From: an uncultured Loktanella sp.
GTDB lineage: Bacteria; Pseudomonadota; Alphaproteobacteria; Rhodobacterales; Rhodobacteraceae
DNA length: 64,000 nucleotides
Assembly: GCA_937132065.1 (NCBI GenBank)
Contig: CAKZNT010000015.1
Coordinates: 2,094-66,093 of the forward strand
Reading direction: 5' to 3'
How positions within the stretch are numbered: position 1 is the stretch's first letter; the number at the start of each line of letters is the position of its first letter. The notes beneath the pieces were generated by a model. That model worked only from the letters and a program-made list of their open reading frames with translations, had not been told where the DNA came from and made no database searches. The position numbers and the translations under genes were made by a program. This document shows positions 36,193 to 50,573 of this stretch, one piece after another.

Positions 36193-37023
36193 CTACACGC
36201 CGTTATTATGGAACACGCAGCCGTCCGTCATCAACTCTGGTGGCGTTTGACATAGCCCCTTCGCAACCGTCCAAGCGGCAAGAACCTTGGGCACATAGGC
36301 GCGGGTTTCTGCGTAGGGTGGCACGCCTTCGTTCTTGCGCACGGCCCCCTCCCCCGCATTATATCCAGCCAGCGCCAGTATGGGGTCATTGTCGAAGTGG
36401 TTCATTAACCACGCCAGATACGCGACCCCGCCTTTGATATTGTCGCCCGCGTTCATGCTATCGGTCACGCCAAATCGCGCGGCAGTGGCGGGCATCAGTT
36501 GCATTAGCCCTTGCGCGCCTGCGCTGCTTGTCACGCTGGTCTGCCCCGCGCTCTCGACCGAGATCAGCGCAAGCACCAAGGCGGGCGACACATCCGTGCC
36601 AACCGTTGCGCGCAAAATATCCAGCCCATGCGCGGTCGCGATTGTCTGAAGCGTTTGAAGACGCGGCACGGGCACGGCCTTGCCTTCGGGCGGATTGGCC
36701 ATTTCGCGCAGCGCCTGCTCTAACCGCCCCGGTCCTGTGTCCGACAGCTTTGGCGACACTGCGAGCCAGAACCATTCCAGTCCTGTGATTTTCGGGGCCG
36801 CGTCAGGGACGGCTGCAACGGCGGTTCCCGCAGCGGCGGGCGCGGACGGGCCACGCGGCGCATTCGGGTCAATCTGCACGGTGATGCGGCGCGTTGTGCC
36901 ACTGGAGGGCACTGTCACGCGCTTAAAGCTGAAATCGCTTTGCAAGCGCGACGATTCCGCGAATCCTGATGACGCGACAACGGAAAAACACGCAATACAT
37001 GCGTAGAATGATGATCGAACCAT
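36193..37023 (-). CDS. Exported lytic transglycosylase (SLT domain)
   Basis: Signal peptide, ISVES catalytic Glu, GAQGLMQLMPATA, AGYNAG, ETRAYV. Confidence 0.92.
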   Translation of the reverse strand: MVRSSFYACIACFSVVASSGFAESSRLQSDFSFKRVTVPSSGTTRRITVQIDPNAPRGPSAPAAAGTAVAAVPDAAPKITGLEWFWLAVSPKLSDTGPGRLEQALREMANPPEGKAVPVPRLQTLQTIATAHGLDILRATVGTDVSPALVLALISVESAGQTSVTSSAGAQGLMQLMPATAARFGVTDSMNAGDNIKGGVAYLAWLMNHFDNDPILALAGYNAGEGAVRKNEGVPPYAETRAYVPKVLAAWTVAKGLCQTPPELMTDGCVFHNNGV

Positions 37024-37145
37024 GGGAACACTGCCTGAAACTGCTTTTTATTGACGCCAGCATCGCAGGAATCGGCTTTCAGAGCGATAGTTTTGATTAA
37101 AATGGTGTTCATTTGGGGCAGTTTGAACACAATTGCCTCCATTTC

Positions 37146-37219
37146 ATAATGTTCCGTTAAGCAGTTAACGAAATTTATATCACTGTAATTCAATGGGTTA
37201 ACAATAAATTTCCCGTTAA
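37146..37219. promoter_or_regulatory. CtrA-like sites in the SLT/flp divergent region
   Basis: ATAA-N7-TTAA at 37146-37160 and TAAA-N7-TTAA at 37205-37219, plus GTTAAC at 37164 and 37197. Confidence 0.5.
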
Positions 37220-37382
37220 TGTGCCCTTGTCCAAAATTGTGCGATTGGGGTCAAACTCCCGCCCTATTCAAAGTGCAAAACATGTTCAACCAAGACGGGG
37301 ATTGAGCCAAACAAGAGGCCGGTTCGAAACGATCCGACAAGGTTGAACTGAAAATCTAGCGATACCCTGAGGAGGGACTACA

Positions 37383-37562
37383 ATGCTTAACATGATCAAA
37401 AACTTCAAGAAATCCGAAGACGGCGCAGTAACAGTAGACTGGGTTGTTTTGACAGCCGCTATCGTTCTTTTGGGCGCAGCTGTTGGTTCTTCCATCAAGA
37501 CAGGCGCAACTGGCCTGGCAGCAGACGTTGGCGGCGACATGACCGCTCTTATCACTGAATAA
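37383..37562 (+). CDS. flp: Flp pilin 1, 59 aa (MLNMIKNFKKSEDG/AVTVDWVVLTAAIVLLG...ALITE)
   Basis: Manually translated (below the ORF-track cutoff); GAGGAGG SD; class IVb leader and hydrophobic helix. Confidence 0.9.
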   Translation: MLNMIKNFKKSEDGAVTVDWVVLTAAIVLLGAAVGSSIKTGATGLAADVGGDMTALITE

Positions 37563-37582
37563 TCCATTCGGATTTTGTGATT

Positions 37583-37614
37583 GGCCGCTGCGCTATGCTG
37601 CGCGGCGGCCCTTT
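37583..37614 (+). terminator. Hairpin/terminator after flp1
   Basis: GGCCGCTGCG...CGCGGCGGCC followed by CTTT. Confidence 0.6.
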
Positions 37615-37759
37615 CCGTTTAGCTTTGTGGGTAAAGTGACCTCAAAATGAGCACTCCCCCGCCACAACCCCGCCACAAGTTACTGGCAAACGTTGTAGCA
37701 GCGAAAATATCCGAAAAGAAAAATTCTTAATTCCAGATATATCCCGAGGAGGGACCACA

Positions 37760-37939
37760 ATGCTTAACCTGTTCAAAACTTTCAAGAATTCCGAAGACGG
37801 CGCAGTCACAGTTGACTGGGTTGTTCTGACAGCCGCTATCGTTCTTTTGGGCGCAGCTGTTGGCTCGTCCATCAAGACAGGCGCAACTGGCCTGGCAGCA
37901 GACGTTGGCGGCGACATGACCGCAATGATTACTGAATAA
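37760..37939 (+). CDS. flp: Flp pilin 2, 59 aa (MLNLFKTFKNSEDG/AVTVDW...AMITE)
   Basis: Manually translated; tandem paralogue of flp1 at +377 bp; same SD. Confidence 0.9.
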   Translation: MLNLFKTFKNSEDGAVTVDWVVLTAAIVLLGAAVGSSIKTGATGLAADVGGDMTAMITE

Positions 37940-37959
37940 TCCAACCGGATTATTTAATC

Positions 37960-37991
37960 GGCCGCTGCGCGTTATCGCGTGGCGGCCTTTT
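37960..37991 (+). terminator. Terminator after flp2
   Basis: GGCCGCTGCGC-gttatc-GCGTGGCGGCC-TTTT. Confidence 0.7.
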
Positions 37992-38112
37992 GCGTCGCAG
38001 CCGTGCCTTGGGAAATAACCTTGAATTGATCACCTGATCGCCACGAACGTGCCGCAATATCAAGCAACAGTAGGTTTAACGAGTAAGAACTGTAAACAAA
38101 GTGGAAACTGAA

Positions 38113-38292
38113 ATGTTGAACCGTATCAAAGATTTTTTCCGCCAGGACTGTGGCGCGATCTCTGTGGACTGGGTCGTTTTGACCGCAGGCATGGTCATTC
38201 TTGCAACCGCGGTCGGCGTGTCCGTCCGCGATGGCGCACTGGACGGGGGCGAAGACATTCAAGCCTACGTCGAGTCGCACATCACTGAATAA
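38113..38292 (+). CDS. flp: Flp pilin 3, 59 aa, divergent (MLNRIKDFFRQDCG/AISVDWVVLTAG...HITE)
   Basis: ATG 38113 in ORF 38101-38292; same leader length and VDWVVLTA core. Confidence 0.85.
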   Translation: MLNRIKDFFRQDCGAISVDWVVLTAGMVILATAVGVSVRDGALDGGEDIQAYVESHITE

Positions 38293-38363
38293 GTCGCACC
38301 CCCTTGCGACGATCACCCGTCAGAGCATCACGCTCTGCAAACGAAAGATAAAGAGGTACGACA

Positions 38364-39221
38364 ATGCGTGCATTATTCGGACTGGTTCTCCTTGTTGGCA
38401 TGGGCCTCGCAGGCTTTGCCGTCTATATGGTTCAGGGCTTTGTGAGCGAGCAGGAAATGGCGCTGCAACAAGAACGTGCCAAGGCCGCAGAAACTGTGCC
38501 AACTGTCAAAGTATACGCCCCCAACCGCATGATCGCTTATGGCGAGCCGGTGACGGAGGCCGATATCACCCTGATCGACTACGCAGTGGCCTATGTGCCC
38601 GAAGGGGCGTTCTCCTCTGTGGAAGAATTGTTCCCCGATGGTGTTGATACCCCCCGCTTTGTCTTGCGTCAGATGGAAATGAACGAGCCGATTTTGGCCG
38701 CTAAAGTGACAAGTCCTGGCAAACCTGCGGGCATCACGTCCCTTTTGGAGCGCGGCATGCGTGCCTTTACGATCAAGGTTGACGTGGCCAGCGGTGTTTC
38801 GGGCTTCTTGCGCCCAACCGACCGTGTTGATGTCTATTGGAGCGGCGCAGTGCGCGGCGAGAATGGCCAGACCTTCACCCAGCTGATCAAATCAGCCGTC
38901 GAGATCATCGCGATTGACCAAAGTGCAAACGGCGAAACCAATGGTGCAAACATTGCGCGCACTGTGACTGTGCAAGTCTCCCCTCAGGATGTGGCTGTTC
39001 TTGCGCAAGCCCAGTCAACTGGCGCTCTTTCCCTCTCTTTGGTGGGTGACGGTGACGATACGGTTCTGAGCGAAATTCTTGTTGACCAACGTGCGCTACT
39101 TGGACTTGCAGACGAGCCAGTGGTTGCCCAAATCGAGGCCGCGCCGATGCAGCAATCTTGCTATATCACCACAAACAAAGGCGGTGATCGGGTTCAGGTC
39201 GAGATCCCTTGCACCAACTAA
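38364..39221 (+). CDS. cpaB: Flp pilus assembly protein CpaB/RcpC
   Basis: N-terminal TM, SAF domain, GMRAFTIKVD..SGVSGFLRPTDRVDV. Confidence 0.93.
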   Translation: MRALFGLVLLVGMGLAGFAVYMVQGFVSEQEMALQQERAKAAETVPTVKVYAPNRMIAYGEPVTEADITLIDYAVAYVPEGAFSSVEELFPDGVDTPRFVLRQMEMNEPILAAKVTSPGKPAGITSLLERGMRAFTIKVDVASGVSGFLRPTDRVDVYWSGAVRGENGQTFTQLIKSAVEIIAIDQSANGETNGANIARTVTVQVSPQDVAVLAQAQSTGALSLSLVGDGDDTVLSEILVDQRALLGLADEPVVAQIEAAPMQQSCYITTNKGGDRVQVEIPCTN

Positions 39222-39433: not shown

Positions 39434-40861
39434 ATGACATGTACAAAATTTATCAAAGCGGTTGTTGCCAGCTTTGCGTTATCTATAGCCGTGGTTCCAA
39501 ATATCGGGACGGCGGAAAACTTGCGTGTGATGCGCGGATCGCCATCGACTGCACTAAACGTGCCGATGAACCGCGCGGTCGTCGTCGAGAGCGACACGCC
39601 GTTCACCGAGCTTTCGATTGCGAACCCCGGGATTGCGGATATTTCCTCGCTTTCGGATCGCACGATTTACGTGCTTGGCAAGGAACCGGGGCGCACAACG
39701 CTGACACTTCTGGGTGGTGATGGCCGCCTGATCACAAACGTCGAGGTCCACGTGACCCCCGACATTGCAGAATTCAAAGAGCGCATCCAACAAATCCTGC
39801 CCGGCGAGAACATCGAAATCCGCACCGCGAACAACGGTATCGTGCTTTCGGGAACCGTGAGTTCAATCGCACGTCTTGATCGCGCCCTTGAGCTGGCCGA
39901 GCGTTACGCACCTGATCGCGTGTCTAACCTGATGTCCGTTGGCGGCACGCAGCAAGTCATGTTGAAGGTCCGTTTCGCCGAAATGCAGCGGTCTGTCAGC
40001 AAATCATTGTCTTCCTCCATCGCCCTTCAGGGGTCGACATTGGGCGGCAACCTTGGCTTGCAGGCTGGCACGAACTCGACGAACAACTCTGGCGCCATTT
40101 CCAGCACATTGGACGGCGCAACCCCCGCATCAAACGCAAATAACGGCGCGTTCTTGTTCGGCTTTAACGCAGGTGGCGTAGAAGTCGGCATCCTGCTCGA
40201 AGCTTTGGAAGCGCGCGGCGTTGTGCGCACCTTGGCCGAACCGAACCTGACTGCGCTCAGCGGGCAAGAAGCCAAGTTTCTGGCTGGTGGCGAATATCCG
40301 ATCCCTGTTGCACAAGACGGCGGGTCGATCACAATCGAATACAAACCGTTCGGCGTCGAGTTGAACTTTACACCGCGTGTGATCGACAATGACGTCATCA
40401 ACCTTGAGCTTTCCGCGGCTGTGTCCTCGCTGGACCCGACCAACGGCTTTACCGCCAACGGCTTTAATGTTGACGCCTTCAAACGGCGCGAAACATCCAC
40501 CACGGTCGAAATGCGTGACGGCGAAAGCTTTGCGATTGCGGGTCTTTTGCAAGACGACTTCATGGATCTGAACGGGCAAGTGCCTTGGGTTGGTGACATC
40601 CCAATTCTTGGGTCATTGTTCCGCAGTGCCGAGTATTCGCGCAAGCAAACCGAGCTAGTCATCATCGTGACGCCACATCTTGTGACGCCGACACGTGGCG
40701 AAGTTCTTGCATTGCCAACCGACCGTGTGCAGCCCCCGACCGAGCGTGATTTGTTCCTCTTTGGACGTGTCACCGCCGATAAGGCGCCGCAAACTGGCGG
40801 CGCTGGTGAAGTTGCGCGCCAGGACTTTAGCGGCTCATATGGCTATGTGCTGGACGATTGA
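39434..40861 (+). CDS. cpaC: Secretin CpaC/RcpA with BON domain
   Basis: QVMLKVRFAE, EPNL.ALSG..A.FLAGGEYP, GDIPILGSLFRS, ELVIIVTP. Confidence 0.94.
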   Translation: MTCTKFIKAVVASFALSIAVVPNIGTAENLRVMRGSPSTALNVPMNRAVVVESDTPFTELSIANPGIADISSLSDRTIYVLGKEPGRTTLTLLGGDGRLITNVEVHVTPDIAEFKERIQQILPGENIEIRTANNGIVLSGTVSSIARLDRALELAERYAPDRVSNLMSVGGTQQVMLKVRFAEMQRSVSKSLSSSIALQGSTLGGNLGLQAGTNSTNNSGAISSTLDGATPASNANNGAFLFGFNAGGVEVGILLEALEARGVVRTLAEPNLTALSGQEAKFLAGGEYPIPVAQDGGSITIEYKPFGVELNFTPRVIDNDVINLELSAAVSSLDPTNGFTANGFNVDAFKRRETSTTVEMRDGESFAIAGLLQDDFMDLNGQVPWVGDIPILGSLFRSAEYSRKQTELVIIVTPHLVTPTRGEVLALPTDRVQPPTERDLFLFGRVTADKAPQTGGAGEVARQDFSGSYGYVLDD

Positions 40862-40876: not shown

Positions 40877-41518
40877 ATGAAAAATATTCTGACAGTGACT
40901 GCCGCTTGTGTCGTCTTGAGCGCATGTGCCCAAGACAACTCCTTGCGCACAGGTTTTAACAGCGCGGCGGGCTCCCAGCTTGATACGGGTAACTTTGGCG
41001 CAGCGACCATGAACAATTCGCTCATCCAGTCGGGTGATGCGGATTACACCATCAATCTCGCGCGCCGGTTTGCACAAGAGGTGAACTCGACAGTCACCTT
41101 CCCGTTCAATTCCACAGCACTAGACGAGGCTGCCCGTGCGACCCTGCGCAAGCAGGCAACATGGATCAAGCAGTTCCCTGAGGTGCGCTTTAAGGTGTTT
41201 GGCCACACCGATCTGGTTGGCTCGCAATCCTATAACCGCCGTCTTGGCCTGAAACGTGCAGAAGCGGTTGTGCTTTACCTCACAAGTCAGGGGATTAGCC
41301 GGTCGCGCCTTGAGGCCGTTGTTTCGTTTGGTGAAACGCAGCCGCTGATCGTCACCGAAGGTATGGAGCGTCGGAACCGGCGCACCGTAACAGAGGTCTC
41401 GGGCTTCGTGCAAAATCACCCGATGGTGTTGAACGGTAAATACGCCGAAGTGATCTTTCGCGAGTATATTGGCGCAGCCGATGCACCCGCAACAGTGACC
41501 GCGGCAGACGGTTCCTAA
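40877..41518 (+). CDS. OmpA-family lipoprotein in the Tad locus
   Basis: LSAC lipobox, GHTDLVGS..YN..LG..RA, RNRR peptidoglycan-binding motif. Confidence 0.88.
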   Translation: MKNILTVTAACVVLSACAQDNSLRTGFNSAAGSQLDTGNFGAATMNNSLIQSGDADYTINLARRFAQEVNSTVTFPFNSTALDEAARATLRKQATWIKQFPEVRFKVFGHTDLVGSQSYNRRLGLKRAEAVVLYLTSQGISRSRLEAVVSFGETQPLIVTEGMERRNRRTVTEVSGFVQNHPMVLNGKYAEVIFREYIGAADAPATVTAADGS

Positions 41519-41764: not shown

Positions 41765-43015
41765 ATGGTGATGAGCAACGCAGTTTTGAAATCAGATGCA
41801 CAGTCGATCGTGGCGTGCACCATCAGCCGGGATGTGCAGATCTTTGATCTTCTGATCGAGGACATGGAAACCGCACTTGGTGAGAATTGGGGCGACCTTT
41901 CCTTTGAGGATGCGGCGGCCTATTTGCAGCAACCAGAGGCATCAGGTCTCCAGTTTGTGACCATCGCAATGGATCACGAGGATGAAGACAACCTCGATCA
42001 AATCGCCAATGTCATTGCCGTTGCAAAAGCGCACGACATCAAGGTCATCCTGATCACCGAAGACGTCAGCCCCGCGTCCTTGCACAAGCTGCTGCGCGAA
42101 GGCGGCGACGAGTTTATCCCCTACCCGCTTCCCGAGCAGGAACTGGCGAATGCGATCGAGCGCGTTCTGACGCCGCCAGAGCAGACCCCGGTTGCAACTG
42201 ATAACGAGCCAAAGCTCAAGGCGACGGGCACACACAACGGCGTTGTCATCCCTGTTCAGGGCATGGCGGGCGGCACAGGTGCAACCACATTCGCAGTCAA
42301 CCTCGCTTGGGAGCTGGCGAACGTCAGCAAATCCGAAAACCCGCGTGTTTGCCTGATCGATCTCGATTTGCAGTTCGGGACGGTTTCAACCTACCTCGAC
42401 CTGCCACGGCGCGAAACGGTGCTCGAACTCTTGAGCGATACCGAGGCGATGGACAGCGAGGCCTTCATGCACGCCCTTTTGTCGTATGAACAAAAGGTGC
42501 ATGTCCTGACCGCCCCGACCGACATGATCCCGCTCGATATGATCACCGCAGAGGACATTGATCGCGTTATTGAAACCGCGCGGGCCAACTTTGATTACGT
42601 CATCATCGACATGCCATCAACGATGGTTGAATGGTCGCAGTCCGTGCTCGAGGCCGCGCATGTCTACTTTGCAATGATCGAACTCGATATGCGCTGTGCG
42701 CAAAACACGCTGCGCCTCAAGCGCGCGCTGCAATCAGAGGATCTTCCCTTTGAAAAGCTGCGCTTTGTGCTCAACCGCGCGCCCGGGTTTACCGACCTAA
42801 GTGGCAAGAGCCGTGTGAAACGACTGGCCGACAGCCTTGGCATCGCCATCGAAGTGATGATGCCCGATGGCGGCAAACCAGTGGCACAAACCAACGATCA
42901 CGGCGCACCGCTTGCTGTATCGCTGCCTAAAAACGCATTGCGCAAAGAGATCGCGAAGCTCGCGAAATCTGTGCACGAGGTCAATCAATCCGAAGAAGCC
43001 GCCGTTCAGGGCTAA
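41765..43015 (+). CDS. cpaE: CpaE/TadZ (receiver-like plus MinD-like ATPase)
   Basis: GMAGGTGATT deviant Walker A, LIDLDLQFG, DYVIIDMP. Confidence 0.9.
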   Translation: MVMSNAVLKSDAQSIVACTISRDVQIFDLLIEDMETALGENWGDLSFEDAAAYLQQPEASGLQFVTIAMDHEDEDNLDQIANVIAVAKAHDIKVILITEDVSPASLHKLLREGGDEFIPYPLPEQELANAIERVLTPPEQTPVATDNEPKLKATGTHNGVVIPVQGMAGGTGATTFAVNLAWELANVSKSENPRVCLIDLDLQFGTVSTYLDLPRRETVLELLSDTEAMDSEAFMHALLSYEQKVHVLTAPTDMIPLDMITAEDIDRVIETARANFDYVIIDMPSTMVEWSQSVLEAAHVYFAMIELDMRCAQNTLRLKRALQSEDLPFEKLRFVLNRAPGFTDLSGKSRVKRLADSLGIAIEVMMPDGGKPVAQTNDHGAPLAVSLPKNALRKEIAKLAKSVHEVNQSEEAAVQG

Positions 43016-43026
43016 GGAATTAAACC

Positions 43027-44469
43027 ATGTTTTCGAAATACAAAAAAACTGGTGACGCAGCACCTAAAGCAAGCGCAAAACCGGCACTGGTCGCCACCCC
43101 CGCGGCGGCCCCCGCCGAGCCAGCACGCCAATCATTGATGCGCGCGCGCGCCAAGCCACATGCAGAGGCCGCGCCGCAAGACAAAGAAAAGCGGCGCAAG
43201 GAACGGCTGGGCGATATCAAACTCGAGCTGCACAAAGCCCTGCTCGACAACCTGAACCTTGCCGCGCTTGAAACCGCGTCAGAGGCAGACTTGCGCGCCG
43301 AGATCAACGCGATCGCACAAGAATCCCTTGAGGAACTCGGGATTGTTCTGAACCGCGAAGAGCGCCAGTCACTTAGTCAGGACTTGTTCTTTGAGGTGAC
43401 GGGTCTTGGCCCGCTCGAAGTGCTTCTCAAGGATGAGACCGTCAACGATATTCTGGTGAACGGGCCGCAACAAATCTTTGTGGAACGCGATGGTAAACTG
43501 CAACTGACGGACGTGACCTTTAAGGATGAAAAGCACCTGTTGCGGATCATCGACAAGATCGTGTCGGCTGTTGGTCGCCGTGTTGACGAAAGCAACCCTT
43601 ATGTCGATGCGCGCTTGGCAGACGGCTCGCGTTTCAACGCGATGGTCGGGCCGATTGCGGTGGACGGTAGCCTCGTTTCCATTCGTAAATTCAAGAAAGA
43701 AAAGCTCGGCATCGACGAGCTGGTCAAATTCGGCGCATTCACCGAAGAAATGGCCGCCTACCTTCAGGCCGCCGTTGCCTGCCGCCTCAATGTGATCGTG
43801 TCAGGTGGTACGGGTTCCGGTAAAACGACAACTCTCAACGCGCTGTCTTCGTTTATTGATGACGATGAACGCATCCTCACAATCGAGGATACGGCCGAAC
43901 TCCAGCTGCAACAAACGCACGTTGGCCGGATGGAAAGCCGCCCGCCGAACGTCGAGGGTAAGGGCGCTGTTTCTCAACGCGATTGTCTGAAAAACGCGCT
44001 GCGTATGCGCCCCGACCGCATCATCGTGGGTGAGACGCGCGGCGAAGAAGTTATCGACATGCTGCAAGCGATGAACACGGGTCACGACGGATCAATGACC
44101 ACAATCCACGCCAACTCGGCGCGCGATGGTGTGTCCCGTCTTGAAAACATGATCGCGATGGCCGGGATCGAGATGCCGATCAAGGCGATGCGCAGCCAGA
44201 TTTCCTCGGCTGTGAACCTGATCGTGCAAGCCTCGCGTTTGCAAGATGGCTCGCGCCGCATGACCTCCATCACCGAAATCACGGGCATGGAAGGCGAGGT
44301 GATCTCTATGCAAGAGGTGTTCCGCTACCAGCGCGTTGGCCTGACACCTGACAACAAAATCATTGGCCACTTCACCGCAACTGGTGTGCGTAGCCACTAT
44401 TCAGATCGCTTTAAGTTGTGGGGCTATGACCTGCCGCCACAAATCTTTGAACCTATGGTCGCGGAGTAA
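43027..44469 (+). CDS. cpaF: Pilus assembly ATPase CpaF/TadA
   Basis: [43 protein letters not shown]. Confidence 0.96.
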
Positions 44470-44475
44470 AACATC

Positions 44476-45441
44476 ATGGTTTCTGCAGCGCCTATTATTT
44501 ATATCGTCATCTTCATCGCCGTTCTGGCGATTGTGCAGGGCGCGTATCTCGTTATTTTTGGCAAATCCATTTCGATGGATGGCAAGGTAAACCGACGCCT
44601 TGACCTGCTCGAAAAAGGGGGCGGTCGCGAACAGGTGCTGGAACAACTCCGCAAGGAAATGACCCAGCATATGAAATCGCAAAGCATCCCGCTTTACTCG
44701 ATTTTGGCGTCCAAAGCCCAGAAAGCGAATATCGCTTTCACACCCGCACAGCTCATTATGATCATGTGCGTGGTCAGCGTTATGGCCTTTGTTGGCCTCA
44801 CTGTTGGCACAGGCGTTGGCACACAAGTGCGTATCGTGCTCGCCATTTTGATGGGTGTCGGCGGCGTGTTTGTCTGGATCAACGGCAAGGCGAAAAAGCG
44901 GATGGCGATGATCGAAGAGCAGCTGCCGGAAGCTATCGAATTGATGGTGCGCTCGCTGCGCGTGGGTCACCCGTTTAGCTCTGCCATTTCCATCGTCGCC
45001 AATGAGGTCGCCGATCCGCTTGGCACGGAAATGGGCGTCATCTCGGACGAGGCCGCCTATGGGCGCGATGTCGGCGAATGCCTTAAGGCGATGGCCGAGC
45101 GGCTTGATATGCAAGACATGCGCTTCCTCGCGGTTGCCGTGACAATTCAACAGACCTCTGGTGGTAACCTCGCCGAAATCCTTGATGGATTGGCCAAGGT
45201 GATCCGGTCACGCTTCCGTCTGTTCCGGCGCGTGGCTGCGATTACTGCCGAGGCGAAGTGGTCTGGCAAGTTGCTCTCGGGCTTCCCGATTGTTGCGATG
45301 ATCGCCGTGAATGTCGTCGAGCCAACCTATTTTGACGAGGTCATGGAAGCCCCCGTCTTTATTCCTGCCTGTCTCGTTGTTGCGGGTCTGCTGATTGCAA
45401 ACCTGTTCGTGATGCGCGCCCTCGTGAACATCAAAGTGTAA
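44476..45441 (+). CDS. tadB: Inner-membrane platform TadB
   Basis: QLPEAIELMVRSLRVGH, QTSGGNLAEIL. Confidence 0.92.
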   Translation: MVSAAPIIYIVIFIAVLAIVQGAYLVIFGKSISMDGKVNRRLDLLEKGGGREQVLEQLRKEMTQHMKSQSIPLYSILASKAQKANIAFTPAQLIMIMCVVSVMAFVGLTVGTGVGTQVRIVLAILMGVGGVFVWINGKAKKRMAMIEEQLPEAIELMVRSLRVGHPFSSAISIVANEVADPLGTEMGVISDEAAYGRDVGECLKAMAERLDMQDMRFLAVAVTIQQTSGGNLAEILDGLAKVIRSRFRLFRRVAAITAEAKWSGKLLSGFPIVAMIAVNVVEPTYFDEVMEAPVFIPACLVVAGLLIANLFVMRALVNIKV

Positions 45442-45453
45442 GGGACCAGATCA

Positions 45454-46404
45454 ATGCAAAAGCTGAACACCATGATCGTCGACCTGCTGGGGCCATTTGG
45501 TCCGCTGATGCTCGTCGGGATGCTCGGGGTCTTTATGATCCTGATCGCTCTGCCCTCTTTTATGAAAAACGACGATGATCCGCTTGATCGCCTTAAGGCG
45601 GCCCCGCGCAAAGAGATCAAGAAAGGCGAGAAACTGCGTCAGGCGCAGAGCAACGATAAGCTCGACAAATACGCCAACTTTCTTGAGCCGCAAGATGACG
45701 AGGAATACTCGGCTGTTAAGCTCAAGCTTGTGCAAGCGGGTTACCAATCCAAGAATGCCGTGCGCTTCTACTACTTCGCGCAGTTTACACTGGGGATCAT
45801 CGGTCTGGTGCTTGGCGGGTTCTATGCCTTCATCAAGATGCAGCAAGGTGACGTGACCACGCAAAACCTGATCATGATGATCCTTGTGCCTGCGGGTTCT
45901 GGTTATTTTGGTCCGAAATACTGGGTCACACGCCGTCAGGCGATGCGCCAGGAAGCGATTACCAACGGTTTTCCCGACAGCCTCGACATGATGCTCGTTT
46001 GCGTCGAAGCGGGTCAATCCCTCGACCAGTCCATCATCCGCGTTTCGCGCGAACTGAAATCGGGCTTTCCTGATCTGGCGAGCGAGTTTGAAATCGTCAG
46101 CCACGAAATGAAGGCGGGTAAAGATAAAGGCTCTGTTCTCAAAGACATGTCCGAGCGTTGCGGCGTGCAAGACATCAAGAGCTTTGTGACCGTGCTTGTG
46201 CAGTCGCAACAGTTTGGCACATCGATCGCTGACGCCCTGCGGGTCTATGCTGCGGAAATGCGTGACAAAAGAGTCATGCGCGCCGAAGAAGCGGCCAACA
46301 AACTGCCAACAAAGATGACTTTGGCCACGATGATGTTGACGGTTCCGCCGCTTCTGATCATCTTGATCGGACCGTCAGCATACGCGATTTCGCAAAACCT
46401 CTGA
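45454..46404 (+). CDS. tadC: Inner-membrane platform TadC
   Basis: FPDSLDMMLVCVEAG, QFGTSIADALR, AEEAANKLPTKM. Confidence 0.92.
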   Translation: MQKLNTMIVDLLGPFGPLMLVGMLGVFMILIALPSFMKNDDDPLDRLKAAPRKEIKKGEKLRQAQSNDKLDKYANFLEPQDDEEYSAVKLKLVQAGYQSKNAVRFYYFAQFTLGIIGLVLGGFYAFIKMQQGDVTTQNLIMMILVPAGSGYFGPKYWVTRRQAMRQEAITNGFPDSLDMMLVCVEAGQSLDQSIIRVSRELKSGFPDLASEFEIVSHEMKAGKDKGSVLKDMSERCGVQDIKSFVTVLVQSQQFGTSIADALRVYAAEMRDKRVMRAEEAANKLPTKMTLATMMLTVPPLLIILIGPSAYAISQNL

Positions 46405-46423: not shown

Positions 46424-46981
46424 ATGTTGCATAAAAGGGCGCTTTGTCTCTTTGCCCTCATGACCCTTGCCGCCTGTTCTTCGGGCGGCTTTGGGCAATC
46501 CAATGACCCGATGTTCGCGCCCAGTGTTGCGGGCGCATCGGATATTGACGGGCTGCTTGTCGGTCATCGGTTGATGGCTGCGGGCGAGCATGAATTGGCC
46601 CTCAAGGCCTATACACGCGCCGCCGCCCAACAAGGATTGAACGTCGATACGCTTTCTGCGCTTGGCTCTGCGAACCTGCGGCTCGGGCGGCTTGGTCAGG
46701 CAGAACGGCTCTTGCGGCGGGCCACAAAACTCGACCCCACCTTCCCTGCGGCGTGGAACAATCTAGGCGTCATCCTCATGGAACAGCGCAAATATGGCGA
46801 AGCGGCGCAGATTTTTCGTCGCGCGTTTGCAACGGATAACGGAAATTCCGACCAGATCCGCGAGAACCTGAGGATATCACTCGCTCTGGTCGAAGATCCA
46901 TTCTACGATAATTCTCAAAACGAAGACGTAAAATTGGTGCGGCGGGGAACTGGCGATTTTGTCATCCTGACTGCACTTTGA
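46424..46981 (+). CDS. TPR lipoprotein (TadD-like) 1
   Basis: LAAC lipobox; TPR repeats (AWNNLG). Confidence 0.8.
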   Translation: MLHKRALCLFALMTLAACSSGGFGQSNDPMFAPSVAGASDIDGLLVGHRLMAAGEHELALKAYTRAAAQQGLNVDTLSALGSANLRLGRLGQAERLLRRATKLDPTFPAAWNNLGVILMEQRKYGEAAQIFRRAFATDNGNSDQIRENLRISLALVEDPFYDNSQNEDVKLVRRGTGDFVILTAL

Positions 46982-47008
46982 GAATTGAGCAGTAAAGGAC
47001 GCAGAAAA

Positions 47009-47866
47009 ATGCGCCACCCTATTAGTCTTACGCTGGCTGCGGTTGCAGCCATTGGTCTTGCCGGTTGTGATCAATCCGGAGAGGCGCAAGTCGAGCGCGC
47101 TCTGGAAGATATGAATGTCGTGGACGAGACAAACCTCAATGACGTGATGCTGACAATCGGCGATCCAGACGAGGCCGTGAACTATTTTGCAGGGGCAAAC
47201 ACCAATGATCCGGGCCGCATTGATCTGCAACGCGGATTGGCGAAATCCCTCATTCGTGCGGGGCGCGCGGCGGACGCTGTGACCGCATGGCAGGTCGTGA
47301 CCAAACACGCCGAGGCCAATGACGACGACAGTGTTGAACTCGCAGATGCCTATATTCGCACCAACAAGTGGGATGATGCAGCCGCCACGCTCAACCTGAT
47401 CCCCCCGACCCATGAAACCTATAAGCGTTACCGCCTTGAGGCCATGGTTGCCGACAGCAAGCAGCAGTGGGACAAGGCCGACAGCTTTTATCAAACCGCG
47501 GCGGGGCTGACGACGACCCCCGCTGGCGTGCTTAACAACTGGGGCTACTCCAAGTTGACGCGCGGCAAATATTCCGAGGCCGAGCGCCTGTTTAGCGATG
47601 CTCTGCGCCATGACACTGGCATGTTCACCGCCAAGAACAACCTTGTTCTCGCACGCGGGGCACAGCGCAAATACGATCTGCCCGTGATCCCGATGTCGCA
47701 AATCGAACGGGCGCAACTGCTCTATACACTCGCGTTGACGGCGATCAAGCAAAACGACGTGACAATCGGCAAAGGCCTACTGCGCGAGGCAATCGACACG
47801 CATCCGCAGCACTTTGACGAGGCAAACCGCTCGCTGCGTGCCCTCGAAGACAATGTGACGAACTAG
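47009..47866 (+). CDS. TPR lipoprotein (TadD-like) 2
   Basis: LAGC lipobox; TPR repeats (LNNWG, AKNNL). Confidence 0.8.
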   Translation: MRHPISLTLAAVAAIGLAGCDQSGEAQVERALEDMNVVDETNLNDVMLTIGDPDEAVNYFAGANTNDPGRIDLQRGLAKSLIRAGRAADAVTAWQVVTKHAEANDDDSVELADAYIRTNKWDDAAATLNLIPPTHETYKRYRLEAMVADSKQQWDKADSFYQTAAGLTTTPAGVLNNWGYSKLTRGKYSEAERLFSDALRHDTGMFTAKNNLVLARGAQRKYDLPVIPMSQIERAQLLYTLALTAIKQNDVTIGKGLLREAIDTHPQHFDEANRSLRALEDNVTN

Positions 47867-48367
47867 ATGTTTGTGCTGCCTGCATCTGCCGCTGCGTGGC
47901 TCTTGATTGCCGCGTTGCCGATCTCGATATTTGTCGCGTGGAACGATATGCGCGCCATGAAAATCCCCAATGTCGCTGTTGGCGCCTTGGTGATTGGCTT
48001 CGCCGTGCTCGGGCTTATCGCTTTTCCGTTTAGCCAATACCTGTGGCAGTGGTCGCACCTGATCGTGGTGCTTGTGATTGGCTTTGTGCTCAATGTCCTA
48101 GGTGTTTTTGGTGCGGGTGATGCCAAATTTGCTGCCGCAGCTGCGCCATTTGTGATGCTTGGCGACCTTGATTTGCTAGGATGGATCTTTATTGCTTGCG
48201 TGCTTGCGGGCTACGTGACGCACCGTATTGCCAAACATAGCCCCCTGCGCCGCCTTGTCCCCGACTGGGAAAGCTGGACGTCAGGGCGACGGTTTCCAAT
48301 GGGGCTGCCCTTGGGAATGACGCTTGTGACCTACTTGTTTTTGGCGGCAACCCAGTCACCCGTTTGA
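47867..48367 (+). CDS. cpaA: Prepilin peptidase CpaA/TadV (A24)
   Basis: D....KIPN and GAGDAK aspartates, FPMG. Confidence 0.9.
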   Translation: MFVLPASAAAWLLIAALPISIFVAWNDMRAMKIPNVAVGALVIGFAVLGLIAFPFSQYLWQWSHLIVVLVIGFVLNVLGVFGAGDAKFAAAAAPFVMLGDLDLLGWIFIACVLAGYVTHRIAKHSPLRRLVPDWESWTSGRRFPMGLPLGMTLVTYLFLAATQSPV

Positions 48368-48482
48368 TCAACAATGCCTTGAAACCTCGCGGCTTTGTCC
48401 ATCATTTAGCCATAAAGTTCGCTGATAAACTGCTGTAACGCCGCCCCGATTGCGGCCAGAAACAACAGTCAGGCGAGACACG

Positions 48483-49793
48483 ATGAACATGCACACCTCA
48501 AGCGTGATGGCCCCGCCAGCACCAAAAACGATCGCACAAATGCAGTTGCCGGTCGCGATGATGCGCGACATTCTTCTGAAAACGATCTTTCGGATGAACC
48601 TGAACCTCGTGTCGGAACTCAGCCGCGTAATCTGCCTGCCAGTGCCCGTTGTGCAAGAACTCGTCGACCTTGCCCGCAAGCAACGCCTCGTCGAGGCAAC
48701 AGGCACGCTTAGCGCCAGTAGCGGCAACGAGATGGGCTACCAACTCACCGATCAAGGTGCCAACCGCGCGCAGGATGCGCTTAAGCAGTCGGAATATTTT
48801 GGCGCAATGCCCGTCCCGCTTGATGTCTACCGCGAGCAAATCAAACGCCAATCAATCCGCAACCTGAACATCACCCGCGACCAGCTGGCCAACGCGATGG
48901 GGCATCTGATCCTGCCGCCCACCCTACTGGGAAACCTCGGGCCTGCGGTTGGTGCTGGTCGCTCGATCCTGATGTATGGCCCGCCGGGCAACGGCAAATC
49001 GTCCATCTCGAACGGGATTCGCGACGCCCTTGGGGACAAAATCTATGTGCCCCGTGCCATCGAATTCTCTGGTCAGGTGATCACCGTTTATGATCCGATT
49101 GTGCATAGCGCCGCCGAAGATGACGTTGATGACCCCACGAGCCTGCGGCGCACGTCAGGGCGCTTTGACACCCGCTATGTGCGCTGCGAGCGGCCCACGG
49201 TTATTACCGGCGGTGAACTGACACTCGACATGCTCGACCTTGTCTATAACCCGACCGCGCGGACCTATCAGGCGCCGCTGCAACTCAAGTCGACCGGCGG
49301 CATCTTCATCGTGGACGACCTTGGACGCCAGGTTGATCCGCCCCAGACACTCGTGAACCGCTGGATTGTGCCGCTGGAAGAGAACAAAGATATCCTGTCG
49401 CTCCAGTCAGGTGAGAAATTCGAAGTGCCCTTTGACACGCTCGTGATTTTCTCGACCAACTTTCACCCGAATGCGATCTTTGATAAAGCGGCGTTGCGGC
49501 GGATCTTCTTTAAGATCAAGATTGACGGGCCTGATCAGGCTGACTTCCTCAAGATCTTTGCAATGGTTGCGCGCAAACGGAAAATGCCGCTCGACGAGGC
49601 GACATTGATCCACCTGCTCAACAACCGGTATCCAGAGATCGACAATGTCTACGCGAACTACCAGCCCATCTTTTTGATCGACCAGATGATTGCGATTTGC
49701 GAATTTGAGGGTATTCCCTATCAAATGACGCCAGAGCTGATTGACCGCGCTTGGGCCAATATGTTCGTCGAAGAAGAAGACATCATGCACTAA
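48483..49793 (+). CDS. AAA+ ATPase of unknown function with N-terminal winged-helix-like region
   Basis: GPPGNGKS Walker A, FIVDD Walker B, FSTN sensor I, ALRRI Arg finger. Confidence 0.85.
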   Translation: MNMHTSSVMAPPAPKTIAQMQLPVAMMRDILLKTIFRMNLNLVSELSRVICLPVPVVQELVDLARKQRLVEATGTLSASSGNEMGYQLTDQGANRAQDALKQSEYFGAMPVPLDVYREQIKRQSIRNLNITRDQLANAMGHLILPPTLLGNLGPAVGAGRSILMYGPPGNGKSSISNGIRDALGDKIYVPRAIEFSGQVITVYDPIVHSAAEDDVDDPTSLRRTSGRFDTRYVRCERPTVITGGELTLDMLDLVYNPTARTYQAPLQLKSTGGIFIVDDLGRQVDPPQTLVNRWIVPLEENKDILSLQSGEKFEVPFDTLVIFSTNFHPNAIFDKAALRRIFFKIKIDGPDQADFLKIFAMVARKRKMPLDEATLIHLLNNRYPEIDNVYANYQPIFLIDQMIAICEFEGIPYQMTPELIDRAWANMFVEEEDIMH

Positions 49794-49814: not shown

Positions 49815-50573
49815 TTATTCCAAGTAGCCTGCCGCGACGAGGTTCTGGCGATAGGTCTTGCTGACAGGCACGACATAGCCGTTGGTAAGTTCGGCAACCT
49901 CCTTGTTGCCAACCCGCCTGCCCTCTTTGACAAAGGCGCGCGCAACCCAATGCGAGCGGTGCGTGCAATAGCCGTCCGTTGTGTCCATCTCTTTCACCGC
50001 ATCCGAAAACCGCATCAACAGGCGGTGCACGCTGCCGTCCTCGATTTGCACCTGCACATAATGATCACTGACGGTGATATGCGCAATCTGGAGCGCGAGA
50101 TCGGCGGGAAGTCTGGCGTATAACCGTGGACGCGCCACCTCTACCACATCAGCCTTTTCGAACACAGGGTTCATCAAGACGATCCACAGCCCCAATATGC
50201 CCGCAAAGGCAACTACAGACATGAGAACCTGCCAGAATGGCATGCCATTATCGATTCCGCCCAAAAGCCCCGCGCGCGAAATCAGAAAAACCAAGGGTGC
50301 ATAGATGATTGCAAAGGCAATGGAAGACAAAATTCCATGCTGATAAAGGCTGTGGGACGGAAACACCCGCTCTTCGATTTCGCAAGCAAAGCCGCCCACG
50401 GCAAGCGCCAGAAACGAGAGGGGAACCCAATAGATAATGCGGTCAACAAGCGACATTTCGGCGAACGTCCCGAATGGCCCAGACAGCACAAACACAACGG
50501 CGACCAGCAACGTCACAAGAAGCGTTCGGATACGAAACGTCCTGCTGATAAAGTCAGATAAAAAGTCTCTCAC
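49815..50573 (-). CDS. Membrane-anchored LytTR DNA-binding protein
   Basis: Four N-terminal hydrophobic helices; DHYV...LMRFSDA...THRSHWV LytTR; GTG start. Confidence 0.85.
   Translation of the reverse strand: MRDFLSDFISRTFRIRTLLVTLLVAVVFVLSGPFGTFAEMSLVDRIIYWVPLSFLALAVGGFACEIEERVFPSHSLYQHGILSSIAFAIIYAPLVFLISRAGLLGGIDNGMPFWQVLMSVVAFAGILGLWIVLMNPVFEKADVVEVARPRLYARLPADLALQIAHITVSDHYVQVQIEDGSVHRLLMRFSDAVKEMDTTDGYCTHRSHWVARAFVKEGRRVGNKEVAELTNGYVVPVSKTYRQNLVAAGYLE

Follow-up and report, generated by a model that had tools for sequence, protein, structure and literature searches.

Why should the gene cluster for a Tad pilus begin with three pilin genes of the same length, two of which are almost the same gene? 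This question is raised by a 64,000-nucleotide (nt) stretch of DNA from an uncultured Loktanella sp., a Yoonia-like marine bacterium (contig CAKZNT010000015.1, positions 2,094 to 66,093; hereafter the window), in which flp1 (37383..37562), flp2 (37760..37939) and flp3 (38113..38292) follow one another on the plus strand. We label flp1 and flp2 as A-type pilins and flp3 as a B-type pilin. The overall explanation that we favour, and hold with good confidence, is that all three genes encode Flp prepilins, with flp1 as the candidate major pilin, flp2 as an old tandem duplicate of it that has undergone gene conversion and flp3 as an acidic B-type subunit probably made at a low level.

Each gene consists of 59 codons and a stop, and predicted cleavage after Gly14 divides each product into a leader of 14 residues and a mature part of 45 residues with an ITE end, exactly as the first-pass annotation of this DNA had described all three. 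In total, flp1 and flp2 differ at 14 nt. Their leaders differ by four non-synonymous codons (M4L, I5F, N7T and K10N) and no synonymous one, as against one non-synonymous (L56M) and seven synonymous codons in the mature part; because the changes are so skewed (Fisher P = 0.01), leader positions 4, 5, 7 and 10 are free or diverging. These counts, together with a longest identical run of 56 nt (flp1 37491-37546; flp2 37868-37923), reproduce those of the annotation. By itself the run is non-significant (P ~0.06 under a model that spreads 14 differences evenly over 180 nt), and it gains meaning because of a comparison between strains.

Metagenome contigs of a sister strain (L035, L036 and L037) carry the same triple array and served as the reference. 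They share 99.53% identity with the window over 6180 nt, and 15 of the 29 mismatches fall inside flp2; flp1 is identical at 180 of 180 nt, and flp3 holds 4 of the 14 strain differences outside flp2. At the 27 informative sites where flp1 differs from the sister flp2, the window flp2 is sister-flp2-like at nine sites (gene positions 13-108), flp1-like at 14 consecutive sites (117-152) and again sister-flp2-like at four (165-171), an arrangement expected by chance with P = 7e-7. The window flp2 is a mosaic allele with a gene-conversion tract of 36-56 nt, which spans 37876-37911 at its minimum and 37868..37923 on the plus strand at its maximum. The mosaic allele is found in five independent assemblies, on contigs of up to 113 kb, and the unconverted allele in three; sample ERZ928254 contains the two together. 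Since the sister flp2 encodes ...TGAEGLATDVGNDMTAMITE, the conversion removed three of the four differences between the mature proteins. This directly observed polymorphism is a modestly new detail, and the two flp2 alleles make a clean, small case of paralog conversion segregating in a wild population.

Could the mosaic flp2, or even the whole array, have arisen from repeat collapse or strain mixing during assembly of a metagenome-assembled genome (MAG)? The genome is MAG-like, with 92 contigs and 94% completeness, and two short contigs (L039, 395-574; L040, 384-563) bear a chimeric gene with a flp1 leader and a flp2 tail, followed by flp3. These two-gene arrays may be either unequal-crossover deletions or assembly collapses through the 56-nt shared tract. 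However, at its two breakpoints the mosaic has flanking identity of only 8 and 12 nt, which would not suffice for a k-mer jump, and the mosaic and its alternative were assembled independently five times and three times. The mosaic is therefore not an assembly error, and we give an artefactual origin of the array next to no credence.

The simpler reading of the tract is that the transfer went from flp1 to flp2 in the lineage of the window, so that 36-56 nt in the surface-exposed C-terminal half of flp2 would have been overwritten by flp1 sequence. Alternatively, the sister flp2 may be the derived allele, its tract having been imported from a divergent strain by homologous recombination, and the identity between the window copies would then be older. 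Pilin genes are hot spots of diversity, as the differences within flp3 illustrate, and recombinant haplotypes exist (for example, L060). Moreover, the outgroup L041 is mixed within the tract and shares only part of the sister-allele states there, which leaves the polarity of the conversion weakly supported and weighs against the direction that we prefer. Nevertheless, the window tract matches flp1 exactly and not a third sequence. Because it is identical at 56 of 56 nt while its flanks differ by ~11% (14 of 124 nt), homogenisation of the paralogs would still be required under the import scenario. We consider such an import rather improbable and retain conversion from flp1 into flp2 as the simpler direction.

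The ratio of non-synonymous to synonymous divergence (dN/dS) between the mature parts of flp1 and flp2 is 0.07 in the window and 0.12 in the sister strain, in which dS is 0.64; for flp3 against its orthologs it is 0.08-0.12, with dS saturated. All three genes are under purifying selection. The combination of dS and dN/dS in the unconverted allele marks flp2, therefore, as an old duplicate that has long been constrained. The first-pass annotation had proposed that flp1 and flp2 are kept alike by selection or gene conversion, and both find support: the former in the dN/dS of 0.07-0.12, the latter in the tract that separates the window allele from that of the sister. At these values neither copy shows signs of decay.

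flp2 was born of a tandem duplication with a repeat period of 377 bp. The repeat unit begins at about -58 of the A gene, takes in the terminator and ends ~140 nt past the flp1 stop, within the spacer that usually precedes the B gene. The duplication has therefore placed a copy of this A-to-B spacer in front of flp2, and the last ~58 nt of the A-type leader and a strong Shine-Dalgarno (SD) sequence are kept upstream of flp2. Within the duplicated unit lies a degenerate copy (CCCGCCACAACCCCGCCACAAG; 37656..37680, plus strand) of the B-type spacer motif, and the motif upstream of flp3 (TCGCCACGAACGTGCCGCAAT; 38037..38059, plus strand), common to close relatives, is a candidate promoter or operator of a flp3-cpa operon. 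In the window, L007 and L041, a motif CGCCACGAAC-N2-3-GCCGCAA is found ~60 nt upstream of the B-type pilin gene. The pair of A genes in L038, a more distant relative, was considered as a product of the same ancestral duplication and rejected: its unit spans the whole leader and its breakpoints differ, and it is therefore an independent duplication.

An old duplicate may still be a redundant spare copy heading for loss, with flp1 as the only gene that matters. Most genomes of the genus have a single A-type gene, two-gene arrays occur on L039, and flp2 is without the conserved leader; in addition, flp-2 of A. actinomycetemcomitans is described as unneeded and seemingly unexpressed (PMC8383342, citing Kachlany). 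In contrast, the unconverted allele, with dS ~0.64 and dN/dS 0.12, speaks for long retention under constraint, and the flp2 frame is intact, with its strong SD and terminator kept in all eight assemblies. A-type duplications also recur independently, with other boundaries in L038 and as near-identical tandem pairs in many genera. The loss of flp2 as a mere spare thus seems unlikely to us, and we continue to regard it as a long-retained duplicate.

What kind of pilins are these? We treat the three proteins as homologs that would work like Flp pilins and, on the strength of their sequences and surroundings, assign them to the Flp/Tad (type IVc) prepilins, here heading a full cpa/tad locus, although they fail the literal motif and hidden Markov model tests of that family. 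Several results stand against this assignment. The predicted mature N-termini, G/AVTVDW in flp1 and flp2 and G/AISVDW in flp3, lack the Glu5 and Tyr6 of the Flp motif G/xxxxEY, as well as the Gly7 that follows in the canonical xTxxEYG. Pfam PF04964 (Flp_Fap) gave no match at E <= 1 for the three proteins, and the NCBIfam pilin models gave none either. A sequence-profile search of the PDB returned 0 matches, as did a Foldseek search of the AlphaFold2 model against the PDB, the latter being expected for a single helix. PF04964 misses the three proteins because Asp5 and Trp6 or Phe6 stand in the place of the canonical Glu5-Tyr6; Asp5 and Trp6 are conservative replacements, and other members of the genus have Asp5-Phe6. 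When a 45-sequence family alignment was compared with 11 canonical Flp proteins by hhalign, the two were matched with 96.6% probability (E = 6.8e-10, 58 columns) in a register that pairs the cleavage sites and places G/AVTVDW on G/ATAIEY, and flp1 aligns with the canonical Flp of its own genome at 47% identity (E = 8e-4). The products are short prepilins of 59 residues with the leader MLNMIKNFKKSEDG and a single predicted helix, which the AlphaFold2 model extends continuously over residues 2-57 (predicted local distance difference test score, pLDDT, 83.7). In build they agree with the short prepilins of the family, which have ~50-80 residues, a charged leader with a final Gly, a hydrophobic helix of ~20 residues and no globular domain. 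Directly downstream lie the tad/cpa assembly genes, including one for an A24 prepilin peptidase, and public records of close homologs are titled 'Flp family type IVb pilin [Yoonia sp.]'. Because flp3 has 59 residues and no match to PF07811, the proteins of which have ~130-220, it would not be a minor pilin of the TadE/F kind, if it is a minor pilin at all.

Pilins of this kind are widespread. In a sample of 201 genera of the same GTDB family, a purpose-built pilin profile finds them in 173, which we describe as a subfamily across the Rhodobacteraceae with the predicted mature N-terminus AVTVD(W/F)VVLTA. That Pfam misses this subfamily is another modestly new detail, and surveys that rely on Pfam will list such tad loci as having no pilin. 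The Asp5-Trp/Phe6 N-terminus is also a natural test of the need for Glu5 and Tyr6. The paper on the C. crescentus structure presents these two as conserved among Tad pilins and bacterial type IV pilins, and it lists Thr2 and Gly7 as conserved too (PMC10710030). All but ~11 of the 173 genomes have at least two pilin copies (~160 of the 201 genera are multi-flp), and tandem pairs of identical profile score with a further copy are common among the sampled genomes. The multi-flp array is therefore ordinary, the norm in Rhodobacteraceae. Such arrays have long been known from Aggregatibacter, H. ducreyi and Bdellovibrio (PMC8383342, PMC3201912, PMC5430801), and Tad pili are thought to let bacteria of the roseobacter group colonise algae and particles (PMC8383342); a paper that deals with Tad genes of Rhodobacterales associated with blooms says nothing of the pilin genes.

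Within the genus, the layout is stricter. In 17 genomes the order is fixed: an A-type pilin, a gap of 130-220 nt, a faster-evolving B-type pilin and then cpaB. The A-type leader is near-invariant (MLNFIKNFRNDEDG), and the A-type genes have an invariant ATACCCTGAGGAGGGA and a terminator, whereas the B-type genes have neither. The C-terminal tails of A and B are paired within genomes (ITE with ITE, QCSGGSCS with QCSGGVCD, GDAINP with GDALNP), a co-variation for which permutation gives P < 5e-5; this value ignores shared ancestry among the genomes. Gene conversion as the source of the shared ITE or Cys-loop tails was rejected. Identical residues of A and B mostly use different synonymous codons, which argues for selection at the protein level rather than conversion. 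The conserved A+B pair with co-varying tails is likewise a modestly new detail. In relatives within the genus (L008, L009, L011, L016 and L018), both pilins end in a C-x-x-x-x-C loop, which looks like a C-terminal disulfide loop and recalls the D-region of type IVa pilins, unusual for Flp pilins.

flp3 is the local copy of this genus-conserved second pilin type. As had been noted before, it is the more acidic protein, with a mature net charge of ~-6 against ~-3 for flp1 and flp2. Its SD-like GGAA is weak, and it is followed by two hairpins without a U tract and, 71 nt downstream, by cpaB; one of the hairpins, GUCGCA-CCCCCU-UGCGAC (38293..38310, plus strand), adjoins the stop codon. Because its SD is weak and no terminator separates it from cpaB, we predict that flp3 is co-expressed with the assembly genes at a low level, and its product may join the A-type pilins in their filament as a minor or co-polymerising component. 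Co-assembly in one filament would fit the matching tails of A and B, given that in the filament of C. crescentus the subunits touch their neighbours through C-terminal residues (PMC10710030). The suggestion of the first-pass annotation that flp3 is a minor or alternative pilin agrees with its conservation in the genus and with its weak SD and missing terminator, although the role itself is a prediction. TadE-like minor pilins are encoded elsewhere in genomes of the genus, and flp3 is thus not needed as a minor pilin, a point that speaks against our assignment. The protein might instead be an alternative major pilin, forming a distinct and more acidic filament under other conditions: it shares its size and N-terminal assembly motif with flp1, flp paralogs are differentially regulated in Bdellovibrio (PMC5430801), and A. 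fabrum reportedly has two interchangeable pilin genes (cited in PMC10934763). Yet flp3 has a weak SD, lacks both the terminator and the conserved leader, heads the assembly operon and carries a tail that co-varies with that of the A-type pilin of the same genome, as would fit co-assembly. A separate flp3 filament is therefore possible but doubtful in our view, and we favour the low-abundance subunit made with the machine, a role to which we give about an even chance.

We propose flp1 as the primary major-pilin gene. It combines a conserved candidate promoter region with a structured 95-nt leader, a terminator of its own and a very strong SD, and the conservation upstream of the A-type gene is striking. 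The upstream box GTCAAACTCCCGCCCTATTC (37250..37269, plus strand), at least 80% conserved among 15 upstream regions of the genus, is a candidate promoter or regulator site. It is followed by a structured 5' leader of ~95 nt (37287..37385, plus strand), which contains a helix CC..CGGG / CCG..GG and an SD mini-hairpin CCCU-GAGG-AGGG and ends at the ATG. The covariance model of this leader (R1) has a single match in each genome, invariably right next to the first flp gene, and such matches come from 13 of the 121 sampled genera; the leader is seen in L065-L076 and in the loci of the genus. In its helices, 96.5% of cells are paired, as against <=65% in slid controls, and five pairs show compensatory change. 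An Rfam scan of 36900-38500 gave far-sub-threshold matches only and no family for the leader, so that it belongs to no known riboswitch class, that for cyclic di-GMP included. Our guess is that it may act as a 5' stabilising or translational element of an abundant mRNA; an undescribed structured leader before the first flp gene only is a further detail of modest novelty. In the AT-rich region upstream of flp1 (37097-37219) there are three CtrA-box-like matches with one mismatch. Over the window, the CtrA box TTAA-N7-TTAA has six one-mismatch matches against 5.7 expected, which is the level of chance, and no exact site; the cluster is a hint and no evidence of a CtrA box.

A strong SD (GAGGAGGGA) precedes both flp1 and flp2, and both genes are followed by a GC-rich hairpin with a U tract. 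Behind flp1 this is an intrinsic-terminator-like hairpin of 11 bp (37583-37610) with CUUUCCGUUU (37583..37620; z-score -4.4), and behind flp2 one of 12 bp (37960-37987) with UUUUGCG (37960..37997; z-score -4.8), both on the plus strand. The first-pass annotation had given all three genes their own SD and terminator, which stands for flp1 and flp2 but not for flp3. The AATCC-N4-GGATT mini-hairpin with a changed loop that it saw at the stop codon is present at both A genes, as AATCC-ATTC-GGATT overlapping the flp1 stop (37561..37574, plus strand) and as AATCC-AACC-GGATT overlapping that of flp2 (37938..37951, plus strand). It is not genus-wide: a small hairpin stands at this place in some relatives, but many lack one. 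Separate regulation of the copies, which the annotation had also put forward, is plausible, as the full leader is unique to flp1 and flp2 has its last ~58 nt behind a flp3-type spacer. Two further readings are tentative and, we think, rather improbable. Segmental conversion and repeated tandem duplication of flp copies might be a routine means by which populations of Rhodobacteraceae vary the C-terminal surface that the Tad pilus exposes, with phages or grazers as conceivable sources of pressure. The leader, for its part, might be a novel RNA element, cis-regulatory or stabilising, that controls how much major pilin is made.

The rest of the locus supplies what a Tad pilus would require. Downstream of flp3, all on the plus strand, lie cpaB/rcpC (38364..39221; PF16976, 7e-24), the secretin gene cpaC/rcpA (39434..40861; PF00263, PF13629), an OmpA-domain protein gene in the cpaD position (40877..41518; PF00691), the ParA-like ATPase gene cpaE/tadZ (41765..43015; PF13614), the assembly ATPase gene cpaF/tadA (43027..44469; PF00437, 6e-66), the platform protein genes tadB and tadC (44476..46404; PF19360, PF00482), genes for two tadD-like TPR proteins (46424..47866) and the prepilin peptidase (A24) gene cpaA/tadV (47867..48367; PF01478), which has the Asp motifs WNDMR and GAGDAKF and is the sole A24 peptidase copy found in the genome. 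By analogy with published Tad systems, CpaA would cleave the three prepilins after Gly14, and a machine of CpaB, CpaC, CpaE, CpaF, TadB and TadC would polymerise the mature pilins; our views of processing, abundance and co-assembly draw on such systems and on the sequence architecture. An SLT-domain lytic transglycosylase gene (36193..37023, minus strand) diverges from flp1, and its position is kept in relatives. Beyond cpaA there is a 447-residue open reading frame (48450-49793) with no Pfam match at E <= 0.001, and next to it on the minus strand a gene for a LytTR-domain regulator (49815-50573).

A second tad-like island lies on contig C52 at ~93.3-101.8 kb (L004-L006, L055). It includes genes for a LuxR-type regulator, a 494-residue TadG-like protein and two TadE-like proteins, together with cpaE, cpaF, tadB and tadC; neither cpaB, a secretin gene nor a peptidase gene was found in it. 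Its Flp is canonical (G/ATLVEY, 31.6 bits to PF04964). A six-frame PF04964 search of the genome gave this fourth Flp gene, on another contig than the array, as its sole match (31.6 bits), and PF07811 matches in the genome are confined to C52. Because the same six-frame search of 24 other genomes of the genus found no Flp, the island looks acquired.

Arrays of two or three tandem Flp prepilin genes directly upstream of the assembly genes are likewise found in A. actinomycetemcomitans (flp-1/flp-2) and H. ducreyi (flp1-flp2-flp3), where the similarity of the paralogs is 50-80% and no clear role is assigned to the additional copies (PMC3201912; PMC8383342). However, those proteins have the canonical G/xxxxEY and are detected by Pfam, unlike the window pilins, and their peptidase gene follows the pilins, whereas cpaA of the window stands at the far end of the locus. 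In the literature on these flp genes we found no report of conversion between copies. The Cpa system of C. crescentus is also an alphaproteobacterial cpa locus with a 45-residue mature pilin of one helix, solved for the all-helical PilA and predicted for the window pilin, and cryogenic electron microscopy shows that the polar C-terminal half of PilA forms the filament surface (PMC10710030). The two differ at all four conserved positions (Thr2, Glu5, Tyr6 and Gly7 in PilA; Val2, Asp5, Trp6 and Val7 in the window), and Caulobacter has a single pilA followed by cpaA, in contrast to three pilin genes and a distal cpaA in the window. Several Flp paralogs able to feed one machine are known from other Alphaproteobacteria, namely ctpA/pilA of A. 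fabrum, reported as interchangeable, and pilA1/pilA2/smc02446 of S. meliloti (PMC10934763). Those paralogs are dispersed or in separate clusters, whereas the window has a tandem array with a recent conversion tract.

A parallel to the tract itself is found in Neisseria, in which segmental, non-reciprocal transfer between pilE and pilS copies alters the surface-exposed C-terminal part of the pilin. The window gives no evidence of silent cassettes, of a dedicated initiation element or of a high conversion rate, and what it holds does not have the form of programmed antigenic variation: the three genes are complete with start codons, both A-type genes have an SD and a terminator, and one conversion event is seen. 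Unlike the exchanges in Neisseria, this single event made the two copies more alike, not less.

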